From: Alphaproteobacteria bacterium
Lineage (GTDB): Bacteria > Pseudomonadota > Alphaproteobacteria > SP197
DNA: 64,000 nucleotides
Direction of reading: 5' to 3'
Assembly: GCA_964291415.2 (NCBI GenBank)
Contig: OZ219920.1
Coordinates: 352,001 to 416,000, forward strand
The position numbers and the translations under genes are program-made. Positions 770 through 16,324 of the stretch are shown here, one piece after another. The notes under the pieces are model-generated. The model did not search any database, was not told where the DNA came from, and saw only the letters and a program-made list of their open reading frames with translations. The stretch's first letter is position 1. Every line of letters begins with the position of its first letter.

Positions 770-1621
770 CTACTTCAATGCCCCCAGTGAGAGGCCCTTG
801 ATGAGGTAGCGGCGCAGGAAAGGCAGCAGCACGATGGCCGGCAGAATGGCGCAGATCGTCGCCGCCGACAGCAGCGCGATGTCGACTCCCCGGTGGGTCT
901 GGAATGACGACAGGCCAACCGGCAATGTGTTCGTGTGCGGACCGCTCAGGATGAGGGCATAGAGGAACTCGTTCCAGCTGAGCAGGAAGGCGAGCAGTCC
1001 GGCCGCCAGAATTCCCGGGGCGGCCACGGGCAGCGTGATGCGTACCAGCGCCTGGAAGCGGGTGGCGCCATCGGTGCGCGCGGCCTGCTCGAGTATGGCC
1101 ACCTCGCCGTCGAAGAAGGCGACCAGGAGCCATGCAAGAAAGGGCAGGCTGAGCGTCATGTGCGCCAGGATGAGGCCGGGGAGCGTGTTGATGAGCGACG
1201 CCTTGAGGAAGAGCGTGAAGAGCGGCAGGACGAGGATGACCGGCGGCAGCATCTGACTCGACAGGACGAACAGGCGCAGCGACAGGCCGCCGGTGTTGTA
1301 GCGGGCAAAGGCGTAGGCCAGTCCCACCGCCAGCGGCAGGGCGAACATCGTGGCGCCGAGGGCGACCGTGGCGCTGTTGAGGAAGTAGCTGAAGAAGGGG
1401 TAGCCGGTGAAGATCTCGATGAAGTTGTCGAGATTCGCCTGACCCCACTCGGGCGGAATCTTGTAGGCGGTCGACTTGTCGGTCAGGGCGACCCGGAGCA
1501 GCCACAGAAGGGGAAGCAGAATCACCGCGCTGAACACCACAAGGATGCTGTGGGGCAACAGCCAGGAAAGGAATCTCCAACGTCCTCGTTTCCTCATGGC
1601 GCCACGGATGTTCGCAGTCAT
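770..1621 (-). CDS. Carbohydrate ABC transporter permease (MalG-like)
   Basis: 6-TM pattern, EAA-type loop LEQAARTDGAT, FLLSWNEFLYAL, C-terminal YLIKGLSLGALK. Confidence 0.9.
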   Translation of the reverse strand: MTANIRGAMRKRGRWRFLSWLLPHSILVVFSAVILLPLLWLLRVALTDKSTAYKIPPEWGQANLDNFIEIFTGYPFFSYFLNSATVALGATMFALPLAVGLAYAFARYNTGGLSLRLFVLSSQMLPPVILVLPLFTLFLKASLINTLPGLILAHMTLSLPFLAWLLVAFFDGEVAILEQAARTDGATRFQALVRITLPVAAPGILAAGLLAFLLSWNEFLYALILSGPHTNTLPVGLSSFQTHRGVDIALLSAATICAILPAIVLLPFLRRYLIKGLSLGALK

Positions 1622-11357: not shown

Positions 11358-12716
11358 TCAAGATTTCGCTGCGTCGGATGATGCCGGGAAGATGGTGCCC
11401 GGTGTGAAGGAGGCGATGGCCTCATCGATGGTGTGACGAAGAAGGTCGACGATGGTGTCGAGTTCGTCCGTTGTCGCATTGTAGGGGGGTGCGATGATGA
11501 TCTGGTCGCCCTTGATGCCGTCCACGTTGCCGCCTGTCGGATAGACGATGAGGCCATTGTCGAAACCCGTCCGCATGATCCGGTAGAACATGCGGGCATC
11601 GGGGCTGAACGGCTCCGCGATTTCCCGGTCCTCGACAATCTCGACGCCCTGGAAGAACCCCCGGCCACGGATGTCCCCGACATGGGGATGCTGGCCAAGG
11701 CTTTCCTCGAGACGCGACCGCAGCAGTTCGCCGTTGGCAGCGACCCTGGCCACGAGATCATCGCGCTCGATGATCTTCTGCACGGCCACCGCGGCGGCGC
11801 AGCATGTGGTGTGGGCGGTGAATGTGTGGCCGGTGATCGGCAGCCCGTCCACAGCGTAGATGGGTTCGGCGACGCGCCGCGAGAAGACGGCGGCGCCCAG
11901 GGGGAGGTAACCGCCACTCAGGCCCTTGGCAATGGACATGATATCGGGTTCGACGCCGTCGTGTTCCAGGGCCCGCCAGGTTCCGCAGCGTCCGACTCCG
12001 CACATCACCTCGTCGGCGATCATCAGCACTCCGGTCCTGTCGCAGATCTCGCGGATGCGGCGCGCGTAGCCGTCAGGAGCGGGAACGGCGCCTCCGGCGG
12101 CGCCGACGACCGGTTCGAAGATGAAGGCGGCGACATTCTCCGCTCCCAGCCGGGCAATCTCGTTCTCGAGTTCCGCGGCGCAGTATTCGGCAACGTCGCC
12201 GGCAGCAACCCCGGCCGGTGGCCGGTAGGTGTTCACCGGCGAAAGACGGCTCGTCTCGATCAGCGAGCCCCGGTAGGGACGCTGGCGCTGGTGGAACCCG
12301 GAGACGGAGAGCGCTCCGAGAGTGTTGCCATGCCATGAACGTTCACGGCTGATGAAGCGGACCCTTGAGGTCTCGCCCCGCGCCTGGTGGTACTGCAATG
12401 CCAGCTTGAGACAACTCTCGACGGCCTCCGAACCCCCGGTGGTGAAGATGACGTGATCGAGGTCGCCTCCCGCCTGGCGGGTGATGATCTCCGACAGCTC
12501 CTCCGCGGCGTCGCTGCGAAAGTGGAAGCGATAGCCGAAGGCAATGTCGTCGAGTTGTCTCTTGATCGCGTCGTTGACCTCGCGGTTGCCGTGACCGATG
12601 CTGAAGGCTGCCGGCCCGCCCGACGCATCGATGTAGCGCTTGCCGTCGCGGTCCCAGACGTGAATGCCCCGCCCGGATGCGATCTTCGGGAGCGTCGAGA
12701 GGGGATCGTTGATCAT
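11358..12716 (-). CDS. Class III PLP-dependent aminotransferase
   Basis: GKRYIDASGG, TTGGSEAVE, SWHGNT, AFIFEPVVG, IADEVMCGVGR, IAKGLSGGY, GHTF. Confidence 0.92.
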   Translation of the reverse strand: MINDPLSTLPKIASGRGIHVWDRDGKRYIDASGGPAAFSIGHGNREVNDAIKRQLDDIAFGYRFHFRSDAAEELSEIITRQAGGDLDHVIFTTGGSEAVESCLKLALQYHQARGETSRVRFISRERSWHGNTLGALSVSGFHQRQRPYRGSLIETSRLSPVNTYRPPAGVAAGDVAEYCAAELENEIARLGAENVAAFIFEPVVGAAGGAVPAPDGYARRIREICDRTGVLMIADEVMCGVGRCGTWRALEHDGVEPDIMSIAKGLSGGYLPLGAAVFSRRVAEPIYAVDGLPITGHTFTAHTTCCAAAVAVQKIIERDDLVARVAANGELLRSRLEESLGQHPHVGDIRGRGFFQGVEIVEDREIAEPFSPDARMFYRIMRTGFDNGLIVYPTGGNVDGIKGDQIIIAPPYNATTDELDTIVDLLRHTIDEAIASFTPGTIFPASSDAAKS

Positions 12717-12799
12717 GTCGGGAAGTCCGCTGGCCGTACCGCCGTCGATACAGCGGGCCGGACCTGCGTTCAAGCGCATCGCCGGCTCATGAGGGGTGA

Positions 12800-12876
12800 T
12801 GGTCGGAGTGGGAGGACTTGAACCTCCGGCCCCTGCCTCCCGAAGACAGTGCTCTACCAGGCTGAGCTACACTCAG
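12800..12876 (-). tRNA. Second, degenerate copy of tRNA-Pro(CGG) (probable pseudo-tRNA)
   Basis: 75/77 identical to 14460-14536; 5' end CTGAGTG gives a mismatch at acceptor-stem pair 2; T-loop variant TTCAAGT. Confidence 0.75.
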
Positions 12877-13329
12877 CCGACACGGGGCGTGACGTGTTGA
12901 CTGGAGACTACCCTGAGTTCAGCCCGATACTGGATCTTTGTGTTCTCGCTTCTTCAGCTATTCGGGAGAGTTGTCCAAGACGAACTCTTGCGGCGCCGCA
13001 ATGTTCGGAGAACCGGAGATCGGCCAGTCGACCGCTCCGCCGGCGATCATCATGCCCTGGATCATCGGACTCCAGGCAAGCGATAGCATGGACACCGTTT
13101 CCTCCGTCGTGGCTTTGACTGCTCCGCCTTCCTGGCGCATCACGATGCTACCGGGTGGATCGTCAGTCCCACCGGTGCAGAACCTCAGCGGTGCCATGGC
13201 GTCCACATGTTCGCCTGACGATGCACCTGACAGAACGGGCGGGAACCCGACCATCTTGCCATACCGGACGACAACGGTGCGGGGCTCAGTGCCTTGATCG
13301 GGACCCAACCCGACAGTCTTGGATCTTGG

Positions 13330-13983
13330 TCAGTCCGTCTTCGGCGGCTCTTCGAGAGTAATTCGTTCGGCAGGGTGAACCTTCGGAAATCGGCTATAGC
13401 GCTCACACCAATCTGCGGCGGCTGGGGAAAGCCAGCGGGTGAGCTGCATGATGTTCGCGTAGTGTTGGATGAGATGCCACTGAAGTATCGGTTCGTGATG
13501 GGCGACGCGGTTCCGGAGCGTCCTGATTTGTCTCAGCGGCCGGGAGAAGTCCTTGCGGCGGAGACCCTTGCCATCCTCCCGGCGTGCGATGTCATGGAGG
13601 ATTTGCTGCCAGAGAGTTTCGTAGCTCGGCGACAGCATCGAGGTCCAGAAGCTGAAGGTCAAAGCGGACACGATCCGCCCGGGAGTCGGGTTCTTCCGGT
13701 CGTCGGTGAGATCTTCACGCGCCTTGACAAGCTGACGGCGTTGATTGTCGACAAGCAGGAAACCGGCGTCGTCGAACCAACATTCATGTAAGGCATTCCC
13801 GAGGACGGCGTGTATCCGGTTCCGGAGCACAACTTCCAGGACCTGCAAGGGTGTGTACAGGGCTTCGGAAAGCTGCATGTTGAGGGCGTAGAGTTCGAGG
13901 GCGCGCGCCCGGTTCCCTCCCGCCCATTCAATATAGCGGGCGAAACGCTCGAGCGACAGGGCTGCTTCGAAGTCGTCGATCAC
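13330..13983 (-). CDS. Abi-family (Abi_2/AbiD-AbiF-like) HEPN ribonuclease
   Basis: LSLERFARY, ALELYALN..LSEALY..LQVLEVVLRNRIH, LTFSFW, LRNRVAHHEPI (RxxxxH HEPN motif). Confidence 0.85.
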   Translation of the reverse strand: MIDDFEAALSLERFARYIEWAGGNRARALELYALNMQLSEALYTPLQVLEVVLRNRIHAVLGNALHECWFDDAGFLLVDNQRRQLVKAREDLTDDRKNPTPGRIVSALTFSFWTSMLSPSYETLWQQILHDIARREDGKGLRRKDFSRPLRQIRTLRNRVAHHEPILQWHLIQHYANIMQLTRWLSPAAADWCERYSRFPKVHPAERITLEEPPKTD

Positions 13984-13995
13984 CAGGACAATCCC

Positions 13996-14024
13996 CTTGC
14001 AATTCGGTGGAGGCAGGCCTATAT
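13996..14024 (+). promoter_or_regulatory. Sigma70-type promoter divergent from the abi gene
   Basis: CTTGCA(13996-14001)-N17-CTATAT(14019-14024), close to the alphaproteobacterial CTTGAC-N17-CTATAT consensus. Confidence 0.65.
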
Positions 14025-14030
14025 CTGGTC

Positions 14031-14083
14031 ACGGAAACCCCGGTACCGTCTCTGCCCTAGGCACGCGGCCGGGGTAATTTTTT
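14031..14083 (+). ncRNA. Candidate ~53-nt structured small RNA associated with abi
   Basis: Starts about 6 nt after the -10; nested stems ACCCCGG/CCGGGGT, CCGT/GCGG, TGCC/GGCA; followed by a T6 run; no ORF. Confidence 0.55.
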
Positions 14084-14459
14084 GGGGCTCGGCTTCACGG
14101 CGTCCGCGTCCGACGGGCGATTCGACGCGGTGCCGAGCCTCCCGGCGTTGTTCCTTCGCTTCCGTAAAGTCGGTTCGAGCTTCTGGATGCGCTTCACCTG
14201 CCCATCAAGATGGTAGGTGTTGCCGTTCCAGTCCCCGGCCGGGGTTATTCTCAGCTCACGGCGAACCAGGCCTGCTTTCTCGAGTTTTCTGATGCTGTTC
14301 TGAATGGTCTTGTCGGAAACGCTGATCCTTCTGGCGAACTCTTTCCTCGAGGGGACGGCCGACGTTCAGTTTCCTGCCAGTAGTCCAAGAGCTCGATGAG
14401 ATGTTCATCTGCAGCGGACTGCTGCCGAGATGGCTCCGTGCTTGGATCATGAGGTGTGA

Positions 14460-14536
14460 TGGTCGGAGTGGGAGGATTTGAACCTCCGGCCCCTGCCTCC
14501 CGAAGACAGTGCTCTACCAGGCTGAGCTACACTCCG
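14460..14536 (-). tRNA. tRNA-Pro(CGG)
   Basis: CGGAGTGTAGCTCAGCCTGGTAGAGCACTGTCTTCGGGAGGCAGGGGCCGGAGGTTCAAATCCTCCCACTCCGACCA; perfect acceptor stem, CCA end. Confidence 0.97.
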
Positions 14537-14563
14537 CCGACATGGGTCGTCCGCAGAGCCGGC

Positions 14564-14592
14564 CTTATACCGGCTGCCCTGTCAGCCCGCAA
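14564..14592 (-). promoter_or_regulatory. Putative sigma70 promoter of tRNA-Pro
   Basis: TTGCGG-N17-TATAAG on the minus strand, 28 nt upstream of the tRNA. Confidence 0.55.
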
Positions 14593-16324
14593 CCGCGGCG
14601 CCGTTTCTCAGGGCATCGGTCGCCGGCTGGTCGACGGTACCGTCGCTGTCGAGGACCACGCCATAGGACCGGCGGGCCGCCTCGATGCTGACCAGGCCGT
14701 CCCTGACGTCGTGAGCGACGTCGAGGGCAGGGCGCCGGAAGGGATCACCCCATCCGCCGCCGCCGGGCGACAGGGCGTGGTAGGTGCAGGGTCCGTAGTC
14801 ATGACTGCCGTAGGCCGCGGGAAGGTGCTGGCGGCCATTGCGTTCCGTGATCGCCATGGCGCCGCCGGCCCCGTCCATGCCCCCGGCGGCGCCGTGGCCG
14901 CTGGGCCGCCCGAGCCCCTCGCTGCGGAAGTGGAAGGTCGAGGGGTCCTCAACTTCGACGAGGTAGTCCACGCCGCACCCGCCCCTCCAGGCGCCGGGCC
15001 CGCCGCCGTCGCGGCGCAGTTCGTGCCTGATGTATCGGATGGGGTAGAGCTGCTCGTAGTCCTCGAGGTTGGGAATGGTGAGCCCGCCCAGCGAAATCAG
15101 GTGGCCGATCTGCTCGAAACCGTCGCGACCCTCCACCGCGCCGCCGCCGGGCATCGCATGCCAGTGATACATGATGAAGCCGCGGTCGCGGGACTGGTCG
15201 TGCCCGGCCGCAATGGGATGAACGCTCCTGCCCCAGCCGGCGCAGGCGAGGTCCGGCCTCGCCTCGCCCAGGGCGCGCCAGATGGCATGGACGATGTGGT
15301 GGGCGATGAAGACCGTGTTCATGGTCATGGGCGCCGGAGGCCGGGGATTGACGATCGATCCCTCGGGCATCACCAGGTCAACCGAACGGAAGGTGCCCTC
15401 GTTTCGCGGCAGGTCCACGGGAAAGAACGATCCCAGCGCCATGTAGGTCGCCGACATGGTGTTGGCGACCGAACTGTTCTTGAAGCCCCGGATCTGCGGT
15501 CCGCAGCCCGAGAAATCGACCGTGATGCGGTCGCCTCGAACGATCAGCTTCACCTCGATTTCGGTGCGCCTGTCCTCGAAGCAGTCGTTGTCCGTCGCGT
15601 CGCTGCCGCGCCATGTGCCGTCAGGCAGGCTGTCGATGCAGGTGCGCAGCATCCGGTCGCCGTGGTCGAGGATCCCCTCGAAGCAGGCGAGGGCGTCGTC
15701 GCGTCCGGCGTCTCTCACCAGGGCCTGGAGACGTTCCATGCCAATCCGGGTCGAGCCCAGCATGGCGCGCAGGTCGCCGTCGAGCAGGTCCGGGGTGCGC
15801 GAGTTGAGGAGCAGAAGATTCCAGACATCCTGGCGCATCACGCCCGCCTCGACGAGCTTGAGCGGCGGAATGCGCAGCCCCTCGTGAAAGATCTCCGTCG
15901 CCATGGGGTTGTAGGTTCCGGCGGCGCCGCCACCGATGTCCGACTGGTGCGCCCGGTTGCAGGCGAAGGCGATGCGCTCGCCGTCATGAAAGACCGGACG
16001 CGCGATGACCCAGTCCGGCAGGTGGTTGCCTCCGGCGACATAGGGGTCATTCAGCAGAAACACGTCCTCGTCCTCGATGGCGTCGCCGAAGGCTTCGATC
16101 AGGGTTCGCAGCGCCAGACCGCCGCCGCCCGTGTGGATGGGGATGCCATCGGCCTGACTGATGAGAACGCCGTCCGCGTTGCCCAGAAAACACGAGAAAT
16201 CGTGACTCTGGCTGAAGATCGGGCTGCGTGCCGTGCGTGTCATGACCCGGCCCATCTGCCGGGAGATGTGATCCAGGCGGTTCTGTATGAGAGTCAGCCG
16301 AACGGGGTCGGGGGCAGGCATCAC
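14582..16324 (-). CDS. Hydantoinase B/oxoprolinase family protein
   Basis: MGRVMTRTARSPIFSQSHDFS, NDPYVAGGNHLPD, AHQSDIGG, EIFHEGLRIPP, GGPGAWRGG, PGGGGWGDP. Confidence 0.92.
   Translation of the reverse strand: MMPAPDPVRLTLIQNRLDHISRQMGRVMTRTARSPIFSQSHDFSCFLGNADGVLISQADGIPIHTGGGGLALRTLIEAFGDAIEDEDVFLLNDPYVAGGNHLPDWVIARPVFHDGERIAFACNRAHQSDIGGGAAGTYNPMATEIFHEGLRIPPLKLVEAGVMRQDVWNLLLLNSRTPDLLDGDLRAMLGSTRIGMERLQALVRDAGRDDALACFEGILDHGDRMLRTCIDSLPDGTWRGSDATDNDCFEDRRTEIEVKLIVRGDRITVDFSGCGPQIRGFKNSSVANTMSATYMALGSFFPVDLPRNEGTFRSVDLVMPEGSIVNPRPPAPMTMNTVFIAHHIVHAIWRALGEARPDLACAGWGRSVHPIAAGHDQSRDRGFIMYHWHAMPGGGAVEGRDGFEQIGHLISLGGLTIPNLEDYEQLYPIRYIRHELRRDGGGPGAWRGGCGVDYLVEVEDPSTFHFRSEGLGRPSGHGAAGGMDGAGGAMAITERNGRQHLPAAYGSHDYGPCTYHALSPGGGGWGDPFRRPALDVAHDVRDGLVSIEAARRSYGVVLDSDGTVDQPATDALRNGAAVAG

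Follow-up and report, generated by a model that had tools for sequence, protein, structure and literature searches.

Layout of the islet at the tRNA-Pro gene

The window (the whole 64,000-nt stretch of alphaproteobacterial DNA that was analysed) contains a minus-strand gene, abi, encoding a protein of the Abi_2 family, and, in divergent orientation ahead of it, a predicted small RNA preceded by promoter boxes of its own. Both are carried on a 1.66-kb islet inserted at a tRNA-Pro gene, the parts of which are as follows.

12784 to 12890, minus strand: second copy of the direct repeat, with a degenerate tRNA-Pro at 12800-12876 (ARAGORN; Rfam tRNA, 54.3 bits)
13330 to 13983, minus strand: abi, Abi_2 / predicted AbiF-fold HEPN protein of 217 aa (ORF, Pfam and structural model)
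13996 to 14001, plus strand: -35 box CTTGCA of the putative small-RNA promoter (read from the sequence)
14019 to 14024, plus strand: -10 box CTATAT, after a 17-nt spacer (read from the sequence)
14031 to 14083, plus strand: predicted small RNA (minimum free energy fold, 52-sequence consensus and covariance model R1)
~14057 to 14450, minus strand: frameshifted wHTH (HTH_36 / DnaD_N-like) remnant (three-frame translations and a profile of intact homologues)
14444 to 14550, minus strand: direct repeat with the intact tRNA-Pro(CGG) at 14460-14536 (ARAGORN; Rfam tRNA, 64 bits)

The two copies of the 107-nt repeat around the islet were 94% identical in a repeat search. The intact tRNA repeat forms the upstream border and the degenerate one, in which the tRNA copy has an acceptor-stem mismatch (non-standard pair marked by Rfam), the downstream border; in the relatives G001 and G013 the islet is missing and just one tRNA is present. 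Besides the tRNA repeat, the search (12600-14700) returned only two short two-copy families (75-79% identity), with no tandem array at the hairpin of the small RNA. An ORF downstream of abi (12958-13308) was considered as a candidate antitoxin and rejected; it had no family match and otherwise occurred only in G019, whose contig supplied the one locus found by a single-protein scan of genome contigs.

The original prediction described abi as a stand-alone gene with no protein antitoxin nearby. The latter statement was incomplete, as the remnant of a wHTH gene lies directly upstream of the hairpin. This gene is broken here: it is frameshifted, its reading frame stops inside the hairpin loop and a profile of intact homologues aligns to 14138-14356 at profile positions 76-148 only. 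Nor is abi strictly stand-alone elsewhere: of the 58 RNA-positive loci for which 700 nt or more of upstream sequence were available, 15 have a wHTH gene ahead of it and 43 do not. Azospirillum, Agrobacterium and Xanthomonas plasmids, G019 and the window have a wHTH gene on the abi strand ahead of abi; in the window and in G019 it is frameshifted while abi is intact, and in intact loci its stop codon falls 3-27 nt before the hairpin. Intact homologues matched HTH_36 (E 1e-13 to 5e-15) and also DnaD_N, with weak RepC/RP-C-like matches (E 2.9e-10 in one homologue). A complex prediction of Abi with the wHTH protein (L015 pair; alignments A5 and A6) gave a score of 0.00, which weighs neither way. 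The wHTH gene may be regarded as an optional third part of the module.

Sequence and predicted fold of the Abi protein

The abi ORF runs from a GTG start codon at 13983 to 13330 on the minus strand. An intact HEPN motif had been claimed for it, and this was borne out, with RTLRNRVAHHEP located in an uninterrupted frame of 217 aa. The protein matched Pfam Abi_2 (PF07751) with 32.9 bits against a cut-off of 25.6 (E 1e-7; profile positions 28-182 of 184), and in a profile scan of the whole genome the Abi_2 match of abi was 30 bits over cut-off; the source genome holds one Abi_2 gene and one match to the RNA model R1 described below. Across 34 Abi homologues, residues R157, N158, R159, A161, H162, H163 and E164 are invariant, as are R54 and N55, with H58 nearly so. 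Both R-N-R..H motifs are present in Abi, and the HEPN R-x4-6-H catalytic motif is conserved. The best defence-model matches in PADLOC were PD-T4-5 (E 2.5e-12) and AbiD (E 5.5e-7), although both are protein-only models with no RNA component. Only distant relatives of Abi (at most 32% identity) were found in the phage collection, in seven records.

A search of PDB chains with the sequence profile of Abi returned no solved relative (only tektin, E 0.1). An AlphaFold2 model of Abi (pLDDT 92.4) was compared with solved structures, and the best Foldseek match was 8vz6_A, the chain of PbAbiF with its ncRNA (E 8.6e-3, TM 0.65). With VIA, the same chain aligned over 198 of the 217 residues with an rmsd of 3.2 and a Z score of 12.5; as Abi is a helical protein, a Z score near 13 is not decisive alone, and weight was placed instead on this coverage and on the gap to the next chain, 9fcv, a Cas nuclease-crRNA complex with a Z score of 5.7. 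As modelled, Abi adopts the AbiF fold. Among solved structures it clearly resembles only PbAbiF in complex with its ncRNA, and the two proteins are 11-14% identical. The comparison with AbiF made in the original prediction is thus supported by the fold.

A conserved structured RNA on the strand opposite abi

The ORF-less unit of about 53 nt that had been pointed out upstream of abi was confirmed at 14031-14083 on the plus strand, where it folds as a nested hairpin of three helices and ends in T6 (14078-14083). Its elements, all on the plus strand, are listed below.

14037-14043 with 14069-14075: helix P1 (minimum free energy and consensus fold)
14047-14049 with 14065-14067: helix P2 (minimum free energy and consensus fold)
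14053-14055 with 14061-14063: helix P3, after the internal loop CUC(U)
14078-14083: U-run (read from the sequence)

The single sequence folds only modestly better than chance (-23.4 kcal/mol, z = -2.37; 3 of 200 shuffles were as stable), and strong support for an RNA element comes instead from comparative data. An alignment-based metagenome scan recovered 502 confirmed relatives, and 80 of these were retrieved. From the homologous loci, 52 distinct sequences were aligned with MAFFT, blind to structure (alignment A3), after leaving out regex mis-matches (L089, L098 and L085, of which L089 and L085 were later detected by R1), a locus on the contig of L011 (L013), the window itself (L014) and exact duplicates such as L032. 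The consensus of A3 has 13 pairs, 8 of which change on both sides, and 669 of its 676 cells (99.0%) are able to pair. This combination of pairing and covariation was matched by none of 500 shuffles, and slid controls paired at 23-47%. In 26 sequences outside the model (one of them identical to a seed), 96.3% of cells paired and 11 of the 13 pairs showed double-sided changes. Covariation of the hairpin and conservation of its promoter among homologues, a check named in advance, were both observed.

The structure was assigned to the strand opposite abi because A3 holds 40 G-U cells and a single A-C cell when read in that direction. Pairing reached 99.0% on this strand and 93.2% on the abi strand, for which RNAalifold lost P2 and its covariation term fell from -1.25 to -0.17. 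The unpaired segments CUCUG and GCAUG are nearly invariant across loci whose proteins share 31-100% identity, whereas the P3 loop, mostly of 3-9 nt, varies in length and sequence and carries insertions at times. A T-run of at least three lies downstream of P1 in 46 of the 52 rows, and the ORF list of the window contains no plus-strand gene that ends at the hairpin. The interior, which had been called more elaborate than a plain terminator needs, is far more conserved than that function requires.

The promoter CTTGCA-N17-CTATAT predicted on this strand upstream of abi is present at 13996-14024, and its -35 box shares positions with AAGGGG (13993-13998), the Shine-Dalgarno-like stretch of abi on the opposite strand. 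A generic scan for E. coli-type promoters and terminators (12700-14700) returned no sites. The two boxes, however, agree at 10 of 12 positions with CTTGAC-N17-CTATAT, which is given as the sigma-70 motif of Sinorhizobium meliloti (PMC2873474). When CTTGAC-N16-18-CTATAT was sought in the 52 rows, 45, 34 and 20 of them matched at 8, 9 and 10 or more of the 12 positions, against shuffle means of 13.4, 2.7 and 0.3, while the corresponding counts on the abi strand were 6, 1 and 0. In 43 of the 45 matching rows, the distance from the start of the -35 box to P1 is 40-43 nt. A TTG begins 38-42 nt upstream of P1 in 48 of 51 distinct homologous loci, and these loci have in common an AT-rich block 18-12 nt upstream of P1; the conserved promoter stands 12-13 nt ahead of the start region of the small RNA. 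The start itself is placed, from the position of the boxes, at 14031-14033, 7-9 nt past the -10 box, giving a predicted RNA of about 51-53 nt.

Linkage of the element to abi was followed with the covariance model R1, for which 51 of the 70 positive loci served as seeds. R1 scored 66.6 bits at 14028-14088 on the plus strand, and neither the rest of the window nor the rest of the genome gave a further match. It was found upstream of abi in 70 of the 91 loci having at least 140 nt of upstream DNA, and was not detected in the remaining 21. In all 70, the match is on the other strand from abi and is separated from codon 1 by 50-154 nt (median 64); the RNA-positive Abi homologues reach down to about 31% protein identity. 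All but one of 72 matched loci hold a single R1 unit. Among 151 genomes of the class, eight strong matches (at least 35 bits) were obtained, of which seven adjoin an Abi gene (one frameshifted) and one adjoins an N-terminal remnant of abi; four weak matches (24.5-26.9 bits) were without abi. The RNA is also retained beside decayed abi genes in G002, L115 and L121, and was not detected in five of seven distant plasmid homologues. Its distance and orientation to abi are kept across chromosomes, plasmids and differing neighbours. At the level of sequence comparison, these data establish a conserved structured RNA, the strand that encodes it, the geometry of its promoter and its tight linkage to abi.

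No promoter for abi itself emerged from the same loci. Between the hairpin and abi, 6 of 51 rows reached at least 8 of 12 positions in the abi sense (shuffle mean 6.2), and upstream of the hairpin 10 of 51 did so (shuffle mean 5.3), which is not above shuffles. As neither interval showed an abi promoter, abi is probably transcribed by read-through from upstream. This is plausible because the wHTH stop codon lies so close before the hairpin and no U-run follows the hairpin on the wHTH/abi strand. If abi is read in this way, the small RNA would be a perfect antisense of its leader. RNAalifold of 39 abi-sense leaders gave the complement of the hairpin only; neither a terminator nor a helix sequestering the Shine-Dalgarno sequence, nor any other alternative structure, was conserved among them. 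Base-pairing between the small RNA and the start region of abi stayed at the level of shuffles, with a mean z of +0.19 and a z below -2 in 1 of 51 rows.

A candidate RNA antitoxin and its alternatives

Given the fold of Abi, the AbiF systems provide the closest comparison. These have been reported as type III toxin-antitoxin pairs, with AbiF neutralised through direct binding by its ncRNA (PMC12373285, PMC12737573, PMC13064643). Abi and AbiF (Prevotellaceae PbAbiF with its RNA AbiFr, PDB 8vz6; Clostridioides difficile AbiF with RCd22) are both Abi_2-family HEPN toxins, in the present case by prediction, with the same fold, and in both cases a short structured RNA with a sigma-70-type promoter and a U-run lies no more than about 150 nt upstream. 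In both RNAs the outer helix is GC-rich and 6-7 bp long; after a small bulge on the 5' side come a 3-bp inner helix that ends in GC and then CUCU. They differ in that the abiF motifs lie upstream on the abi strand, as in C. difficile RCd22, which is co-transcribed with abiF (PMC12373285), whereas the RNA of the window lies on the opposite strand. In the AbiF type of pair, transcription of the RNA continues into the toxin gene past a leaky terminator. The latter has no counterpart of the 6-nt 3' internal loop CAAAUC of the abiF consensus and has an extra helix, P3; Abi is 217 aa long, compared with 297 in the solved chain, and is carried by Pseudomonadota and Streptomyces, whereas AbiF systems come from Bacillota or Bacteroidota. 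A match to the Rfam abiF model, which had been named beforehand as a check, was not obtained: neither RF03085 nor any other family was found at the RNA at E <= 10 (12500-15000 and 20 homologous loci), and RF03085 had no match in the source genome, while as a positive control it recovered the true motif in phage phiC2 with 37.6 bits.

By analogy with AbiF, we hold with moderate confidence that abi and the RNA form a two-part module in which a small RNA silences an AbiF-fold RNase by binding it, a type III kind of control. One part would be the 217-aa HEPN ribonuclease. The other would be an RNA of about 55 nt, transcribed on the opposite strand from a sigma-70-type promoter of its own, starting a few bases before the hairpin formed by P1, P2, the CUCU internal loop and P3, and stopping at the U-run. 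This RNA would bind Abi and hold the RNase silent, as the upstream ncRNA does with AbiF. If phage-induced shut-off of transcription, or the loss of the islet or plasmid, cut off its supply, the short RNA would decay and free the toxin. Transcription of the RNA, its binding to Abi and the toxicity of Abi are what we infer for this module. The abi gene is intact in the window although the sole neighbouring protein candidate, the wHTH gene, is broken, and this, together with the 43 of 58 loci that have no wHTH gene, supports the RNA as the partner of abi.

Under a rival explanation, possible though somewhat unlikely, the RNA is a cis-antisense countertranscript which, with its head-on promoter, lowers abi expression through duplex formation and cleavage or through transcriptional interference, abi being promoterless and read from the wHTH gene or, here, from the tRNA-Pro gene; such an effect could also accompany protein binding. 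The anatomy fits, with a backward intergenic sigma-70 promoter, one hairpin with a U-run and a length of about 55 nt, and so do the overlap of the -35 box with the ribosome-binding stretch of abi, the abi-sense promoter signals within shuffle range and the plausibility of read-through. The ctRNA of repABC plasmids (inc-alpha) is described likewise, as an intergenic antisense RNA with a backward promoter that negatively controls the downstream gene (PMC3155836). It resembles the RNA of the window in its intergenic placement, its backward promoter of its own and its occurrence on rhizobial and Agrobacterium plasmids, but the RNA considered here is flanked by wHTH and abi rather than repB and repC, and an upstream operon partner is missing from most of its loci. 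Fixed loop letters would be unnecessary for a purely cis-antisense RNA, yet these are nearly invariant even among distant homologues; the abi leader, unlike that of repABC, has no conserved switch structure in 39 sequences, complementarity between the RNA and the abi start stays at shuffle level, and 43 of 58 loci have no wHTH gene as a source of read-through. Type I systems such as hok/sok offer a similar likeness, an antisense RNA with its own promoter lying over the 5' region of the toxin transcript if abi is read through; type I toxins, however, are small hydrophobic peptides, whereas Abi is predicted to be a soluble HEPN protein of 217 aa and its mRNA would overlap the RNA only under read-through. 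A hybrid of type I and type III antitoxin is regarded as doubtful; here an RNA from an autonomous promoter, directed head-on against the sole route by which abi would be transcribed, would be perfectly antisense to the abi leader and at the same time an inhibitor of the AbiF-fold HEPN dimer through the CUCUG and GCAUG loops. The same doubt attaches to its further proposal that the RNA descends from the abiF motif, or is a sister of it, in an inverted and self-standing form that has spread through Pseudomonadota and Actinomycetota.

It is very unlikely that the RNA, instead of inhibiting the Abi nuclease, is required for its activity or triggering as a positive cofactor or as a sensor, in an arrangement on the way to a ribonucleoprotein like Cas13. 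PbAbiF was solved as a ribonucleoprotein, the second structural match (9fcv) is itself a Cas nuclease-crRNA complex, AbiF has been discussed as an ancestor of Cas13 (PMC12737573) and the P3 loop is variable; but P3 loops mostly of 3-9 nt are too short to guide, and the RNAs of characterised AbiF systems are described as inhibitors (PMC12373285, PMC12737573, PMC13064643). The RNA also remains beside decayed abi genes (G002, L115 and L121), as would be expected of an antidote more than of a cofactor. Still less probable is a type II-like arrangement in which the wHTH protein would itself serve as antitoxin or regulator and the hairpin only as its operator, an intergenic terminator or a processing site. 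Compensatory changes and the G-U asymmetry indicate a folded single strand and not a duplex operator, the U-run of a terminator is missing behind the hairpin on the wHTH/abi strand, and wHTH is frameshifted in the window and G019 beside intact abi genes and absent from most RNA-positive loci, even though a winged-helix gene does precede abi on the same strand in the window, in G019 and on the plasmids named above. Hardly credible, finally, is the absence of any RNA gene, the hairpin being no more than an intrinsic terminator or else an att, ori or nick site that acts in the DNA of the mobile islet and travels with abi. A hairpin followed by a T-run does resemble a terminator, the islet is mobile DNA at a tRNA and the wHTH has its weak RepC/RP-C-like matches, but there is no plus-strand gene to terminate, a conserved promoter lies directly upstream at a fixed distance, position and orientation relative to abi are held across contexts and the interior is conserved beyond the needs of a terminator.

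With the RNA read as an antitoxin that binds Abi, the pair would probably be a new form of a known phage-defence module, with an RNA as the antitoxin, and the sequence data are best read as a new RNA partner, divergently transcribed, of an AbiF-fold toxin. Current opinion places AbiF and its ncRNA among the type III toxin-antitoxin systems and at the evolutionary origin of Cas13, and the existing picture rests on Bacillota and Bacteroidota systems with a same-strand leader RNA. The present RNA would add a second, large class for the AbiF fold, of about 55 nt, with a different architecture, its own promoter and the opposite orientation, and would offer a testable reason why hosts tolerate hundreds of single-gene 'Abi family protein' annotations. 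No description of a divergent small RNA beside Abi_2 genes was found in the literature searched, although the primary Cas13-origin study may cover these clades; novelty is limited in that reviews already predict upstream ncRNAs across the AbiD/F group. The R1 model could annotate an RNA family unrecognised by Rfam 15 in the searches made, and so small an RNA-protein pair would be suited to structural study of how an RNA restrains a HEPN site.

The proposed inactivation of an endoRNase by an adjacent cognate small RNA is also the principle of the classical type III systems (ToxIN, AbiQ, CptIN and TenpIN). Their antitoxins are tandem repeats located upstream on the same strand and processed by the toxin, and the toxins have the ToxN fold, not HEPN; the RNA of the window, in contrast, is a single unit on the other strand and its predicted toxin is of the HEPN type. 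Roles reported for the classical systems are abortive infection of phage and plasmid maintenance (PMC13064643). Carriers of the element described here include alpha- and gammaproteobacteria and Streptomyces, with named plasmids of Azospirillum, Agrobacterium, Sinorhizobium, Methylobacterium, Xanthomonas and Streptomyces among them, and the element is often plasmid-borne beside partition or other defence genes.

A predicted small-RNA unit on an islet at tRNA-Pro

In the window, abi is carried on a 1.66-kb islet bordered by a 107-nt direct repeat (copies 94% identical), and all genes of the islet lie on the minus strand in the order wHTH remnant, hairpin region, abi and a 116-aa ORF.

14444-14550: upstream repeat copy, with tRNA-Pro(CGG) and flanks inside
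~14450-14057, minus strand: winged-helix (wHTH) gene remnant, frameshifted
14031-14083, plus strand: 53-nt predicted small-RNA unit, ending in six T
14019-14024, plus strand: -10 box CTATAT
13996-14001, plus strand: -35 box CTTGCA, followed by a 17-nt spacer
13983-13330, minus strand: abi, 217 aa
13308-12958, minus strand: 116-aa ORF directly 3' of abi
12784-12890: downstream repeat copy, with tRNA-Pro(CGG) and flanks inside

The tRNA-Pro(CGG) at 14460-14536 is intact (64 bits) and its copy at 12800-12876 is mismatched in the acceptor stem (54.3 bits). GC content is ~0.60 within the islet against 0.65-0.73 outside, and no integrase is left inside it. Two same-genus relatives (G001 and G013) have an empty site with a single tRNA, the same islet is present in a third genome, G019 (90% identity), and further relatives carry other DNA at the site (inserts of 2-13 kb); since relatives show either an empty site or differing inserts, tRNA-Pro is an integration hot spot. 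At two metagenome loci, too, a tRNA gene lies a few hundred bases or less from the module (L039 335-405 and L064 1532-1574, both minus strand), which hints at repeated insertion beside tRNAs, as in the window. The 116-aa ORF matched no Pfam, NCBIfam or PADLOC family; outside the window a homologue was found in G019 only (75% identity), and the ORF does not belong to the conserved module. A weak Rfam match to Xanthomonas asX4 within the aminotransferase gene at 12626-12711 (plus strand; 19.8 bits, E 0.0083, gathering score 100) is most likely due to chance.

The original prediction had described a promoter and hairpin divergent from abi, and their coordinates and letters proved exact when the sequence was re-read. 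The plus-strand RNA folds into three nested helices, P1, P2 and P3 (-23.4 kcal/mol, z -2.37; 3 of 200 shuffled sequences folded equally well), a fold energy that is weak evidence taken alone. Neither promoter nor terminator was reported at this unit by a generic E. coli-type scan. The two boxes agree at 10 of 12 positions with CTTGAC-N17-CTATAT, a sigma-70 motif applied to S. meliloti small RNAs (PMC2873474). The -35 box overlaps the ribosome-binding stretch of abi, AAGGGG on the opposite strand. Five spacer positions differ between the window and G019, with both hexamers and the hairpin identical.

Conservation of hairpin, strand and promoter

Hairpin covariation and promoter conservation among abi homologues, which the original prediction had put forward as a test, were both observed. 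Relatives of the Abi protein numbered 1080 at E <= 0.001 among 1710 candidates, the best 120 being 62-100% identical and mostly 204-250 aa long. Fifteen loci were taken from 401 genomes of the class, of which 16 matched, own genome included, and 80 metagenome loci were the best 80 of 502 confirmed relatives. Even by simple inspection the hairpin was apparent ahead of abi in many loci, with compensatory arm changes such as CCCCAG...CTGGGG. In a structure-blind MAFFT alignment of the window and 51 distinct loci (A3), the RNAalifold consensus comprised 13 pairs in three helices, with standard pairs in 669 of 676 cells (99.0%) and changes on both sides at 8 of the 13 pairs (29 cells), counts that are biased for P1 because the pattern used to pick seeds demanded P1-like arms, P2 and P3 being left unconstrained. 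None of 500 column shuffles matched these pairing and covariation values, and sliding the 3' partners by 1-3 columns reduced pairing to 23-47%.

A covariance model of the element (R1) matched 70 of the 91 loci whose DNA upstream of abi reached at least 140 nt, always on the strand opposite abi and 50-154 nt (median 64) from codon 1; the 21 loci without a match mostly encode proteins of 28-39% identity. In the 26 matches outside the model seeds, one of them identical to a seed and all aligned by fitting to R1, 96.3% of cells were paired and 11 of 13 pairs had changed on both sides.

The promoter lies on the same strand as the folded RNA. On this non-abi strand A3 contains 40 G-U cells, 30 of them in P2 and P3, against one A-C cell; pairing drops from 99.0% to 93.2% on the abi strand because the G-U cells become mismatches there, and RNAalifold loses P2 on that strand and returns a smaller covariation term. 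In 48 of 51 rows a TTG begins 38-42 nt ahead of P1, an AT-rich block occupies -18 to -12 relative to P1, and a nearly invariant G-U-A stands at -5 to -3, the expected place for transcription to begin. The alpha-type consensus was matched at 8 or more, 9 or more and 10 or more of 12 positions by 45, 34 and 20 of 52 rows, respectively, compared with shuffle means of 13.4, 2.7 and 0.3 and with 6, 1 and 0 rows on the opposite strand; the E. coli consensus was matched at 8 or more positions by 27 of 51 rows (shuffle mean 6.2). After P1, 46 of 52 rows have a run of at least three T and 21 a run of at least five.

Relation to AbiF systems and possible mode of action

The Abi protein matched Pfam Abi_2 above cut-off as well as the PADLOC models PD-T4-5 and AbiD, and both of its HEPN-type motifs are invariant across 34 homologues. 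A sequence-profile search found no related solved structure. Its AlphaFold model (pLDDT 92.4) has one clear structural relative, 8vz6 chain A, 'PbAbiF dimer bound to ncRNA' (Foldseek E 8.6e-3, probability 1.00, TM 0.65, next match E 1.5; VIA-align Z 12.5, rmsd 3.2 over 198 aligned residues, next chain Z 5.7). In C. difficile, the toxic Abi_2 protein AbiF is neutralised when RCd22, an RNA of ~100 nt with two abiF motifs, binds it directly; the RCd22 gene lies upstream of abiF in the same orientation, has a SigA promoter followed by a leaky terminator, and is transcribed together with abiF (PMC12373285). Reviews give the same picture for Prevotellaceae AbiF (8VZ6), regard AbiF as the Cas13 ancestor and expect upstream ncRNAs in the AbiD/F group (PMC12737573, PMC13064643).

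The Rfam abiF model, which the original prediction had proposed to apply, gave no match at E <= 10 in window 12500-15000, 20 homologous loci or the own genome, nor did any other Rfam 15 family match the RNA there at that threshold; as a positive control, the abiF model detected the motif of phage phiC2 on the abiF strand (37.6 bits). The 5' half of the abiF consensus (CCCGCC-A-AGC-CUCUCA...GCU-CAAAUC-GGCGGG) resembles that of the present RNA (CCCCGG-(2-3 nt)-NGC-CUCU-[P3 hairpin]-AU-GCN-(0-1 nt)-CCGGGG), a likeness that may serve as a lead for common descent or convergence. Unlike the abiF motif, however, the present RNA lacks the 3' internal loop, has an extra helix and is encoded in inverted orientation. 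The module is of the AbiF-ncRNA type with a different RNA, inverted and autonomous. No earlier description of this clade's RNA turned up in the literature listings searched.

We infer that the small RNA would act as a type III-like antitoxin by binding the AbiF-fold HEPN protein; this is the most likely reading of its function, at about an even chance. The main rival, a cis-antisense RNA or transcriptional interference acting on a read-through abi transcript, gains from the lack of a detectable abi promoter; we consider it somewhat unlikely. In its anatomy the RNA gene resembles the repABC countertranscript (PMC3155836). Two results speak against a countertranscript: no conserved switch structure was predicted in the abi leader, and the RNA shows no excess complementarity to the abi start region. 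Protein binding and antisense action are mutually compatible; a hybrid, in which one RNA both silences the abi leader as antisense and docks on the AbiF-fold HEPN protein, appears unlikely.

The wHTH gene, upstream of the hairpin on the abi strand, encodes HTH_36/DnaD_N winged-helix proteins of 164-207 aa where intact, some with weak RepC/RP-C matches, and ends 3-27 nt before the hairpin. Of the RNA-positive loci, 58 extend at least 700 nt upstream; the gene is present and intact in 15 of these and missing in 43. As it is also frameshifted in the window (14057-14450, minus strand) and differently degraded in G019 (L011 6163-6568), with abi intact in both, it is therefore not an indispensable antidote.

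Carriers of the module

The RNA feature is genuine and conserved, and its linkage to abi is specific. The own genome holds one Abi_2 gene and one R1 match. Scanning 151 genomes of the class with R1 (E <= 0.001) gave 12 places in 11 genomes. Eight scored at least 35 bits, seven of them adjoining an Abi gene (one frameshifted) and one an apparent abi N-terminal remnant; the other four were weak (24.5-26.9 bits), shorter and without abi, and are probably chance hairpins. In G142 the RNA persists beside the abi N-terminal remnant (L115 1501-1562) and a second copy adjoins the frameshifted abi (L121), and in G002 it is retained beside a truncated abi (L010 2041-2101), the hairpin being ~90% identical inside a match of 73% identity; the antidote-like element seems to outlive the toxin gene.

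On A. lipoferum 4B p4, A. fabrum pAt12D13b and X. citri pv. vignicola plB the RNA is flanked by an HTH gene on one side and an 'Abi family protein' gene on the other, and on S. meliloti pEm1132b RNA and abi were present and the wHTH gene was not detected. Two of seven Abi loci in a plasmid test were positive, with the RNA 48-62 nt upstream of abi (Methylobacterium, 45 bits; Streptomyces globisporus, 37 bits); no match appeared (E <= 1, filters off) next to the more distant Abi genes of X. phaseoli, Zymomonas, Pantoea, Y. ruckeri and A. baumannii plasmids.

At locus L096, a 41-bit R1 match follows immediately after abi (1172-1229, minus strand) and has TTGCAA and TATAAT-like boxes of its own; no R1 match was found upstream of the gene. 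This match may be a tandem second module with a toxin that was not recognised. A C4 antisense RNA match (46.4 bits, gathering score 45) and an isrK-like match directly after abi at L089 (1452-1614, plus strand) suggest a P1/P7-like prophage context for that copy. On the S. meliloti and A. fabrum plasmids (L122 450-2778, L123 1-2054) the module follows a conserved trio of genes, for a nucleotidyltransferase, a DUF6602 protein and a hypothetical protein, which may be another defence system, the two together forming a small defence island. On X. citri plB (L124 218-6633) the module stands between stbB and parA/parC partition genes and the replication gene, a placement typical of plasmid addiction modules.
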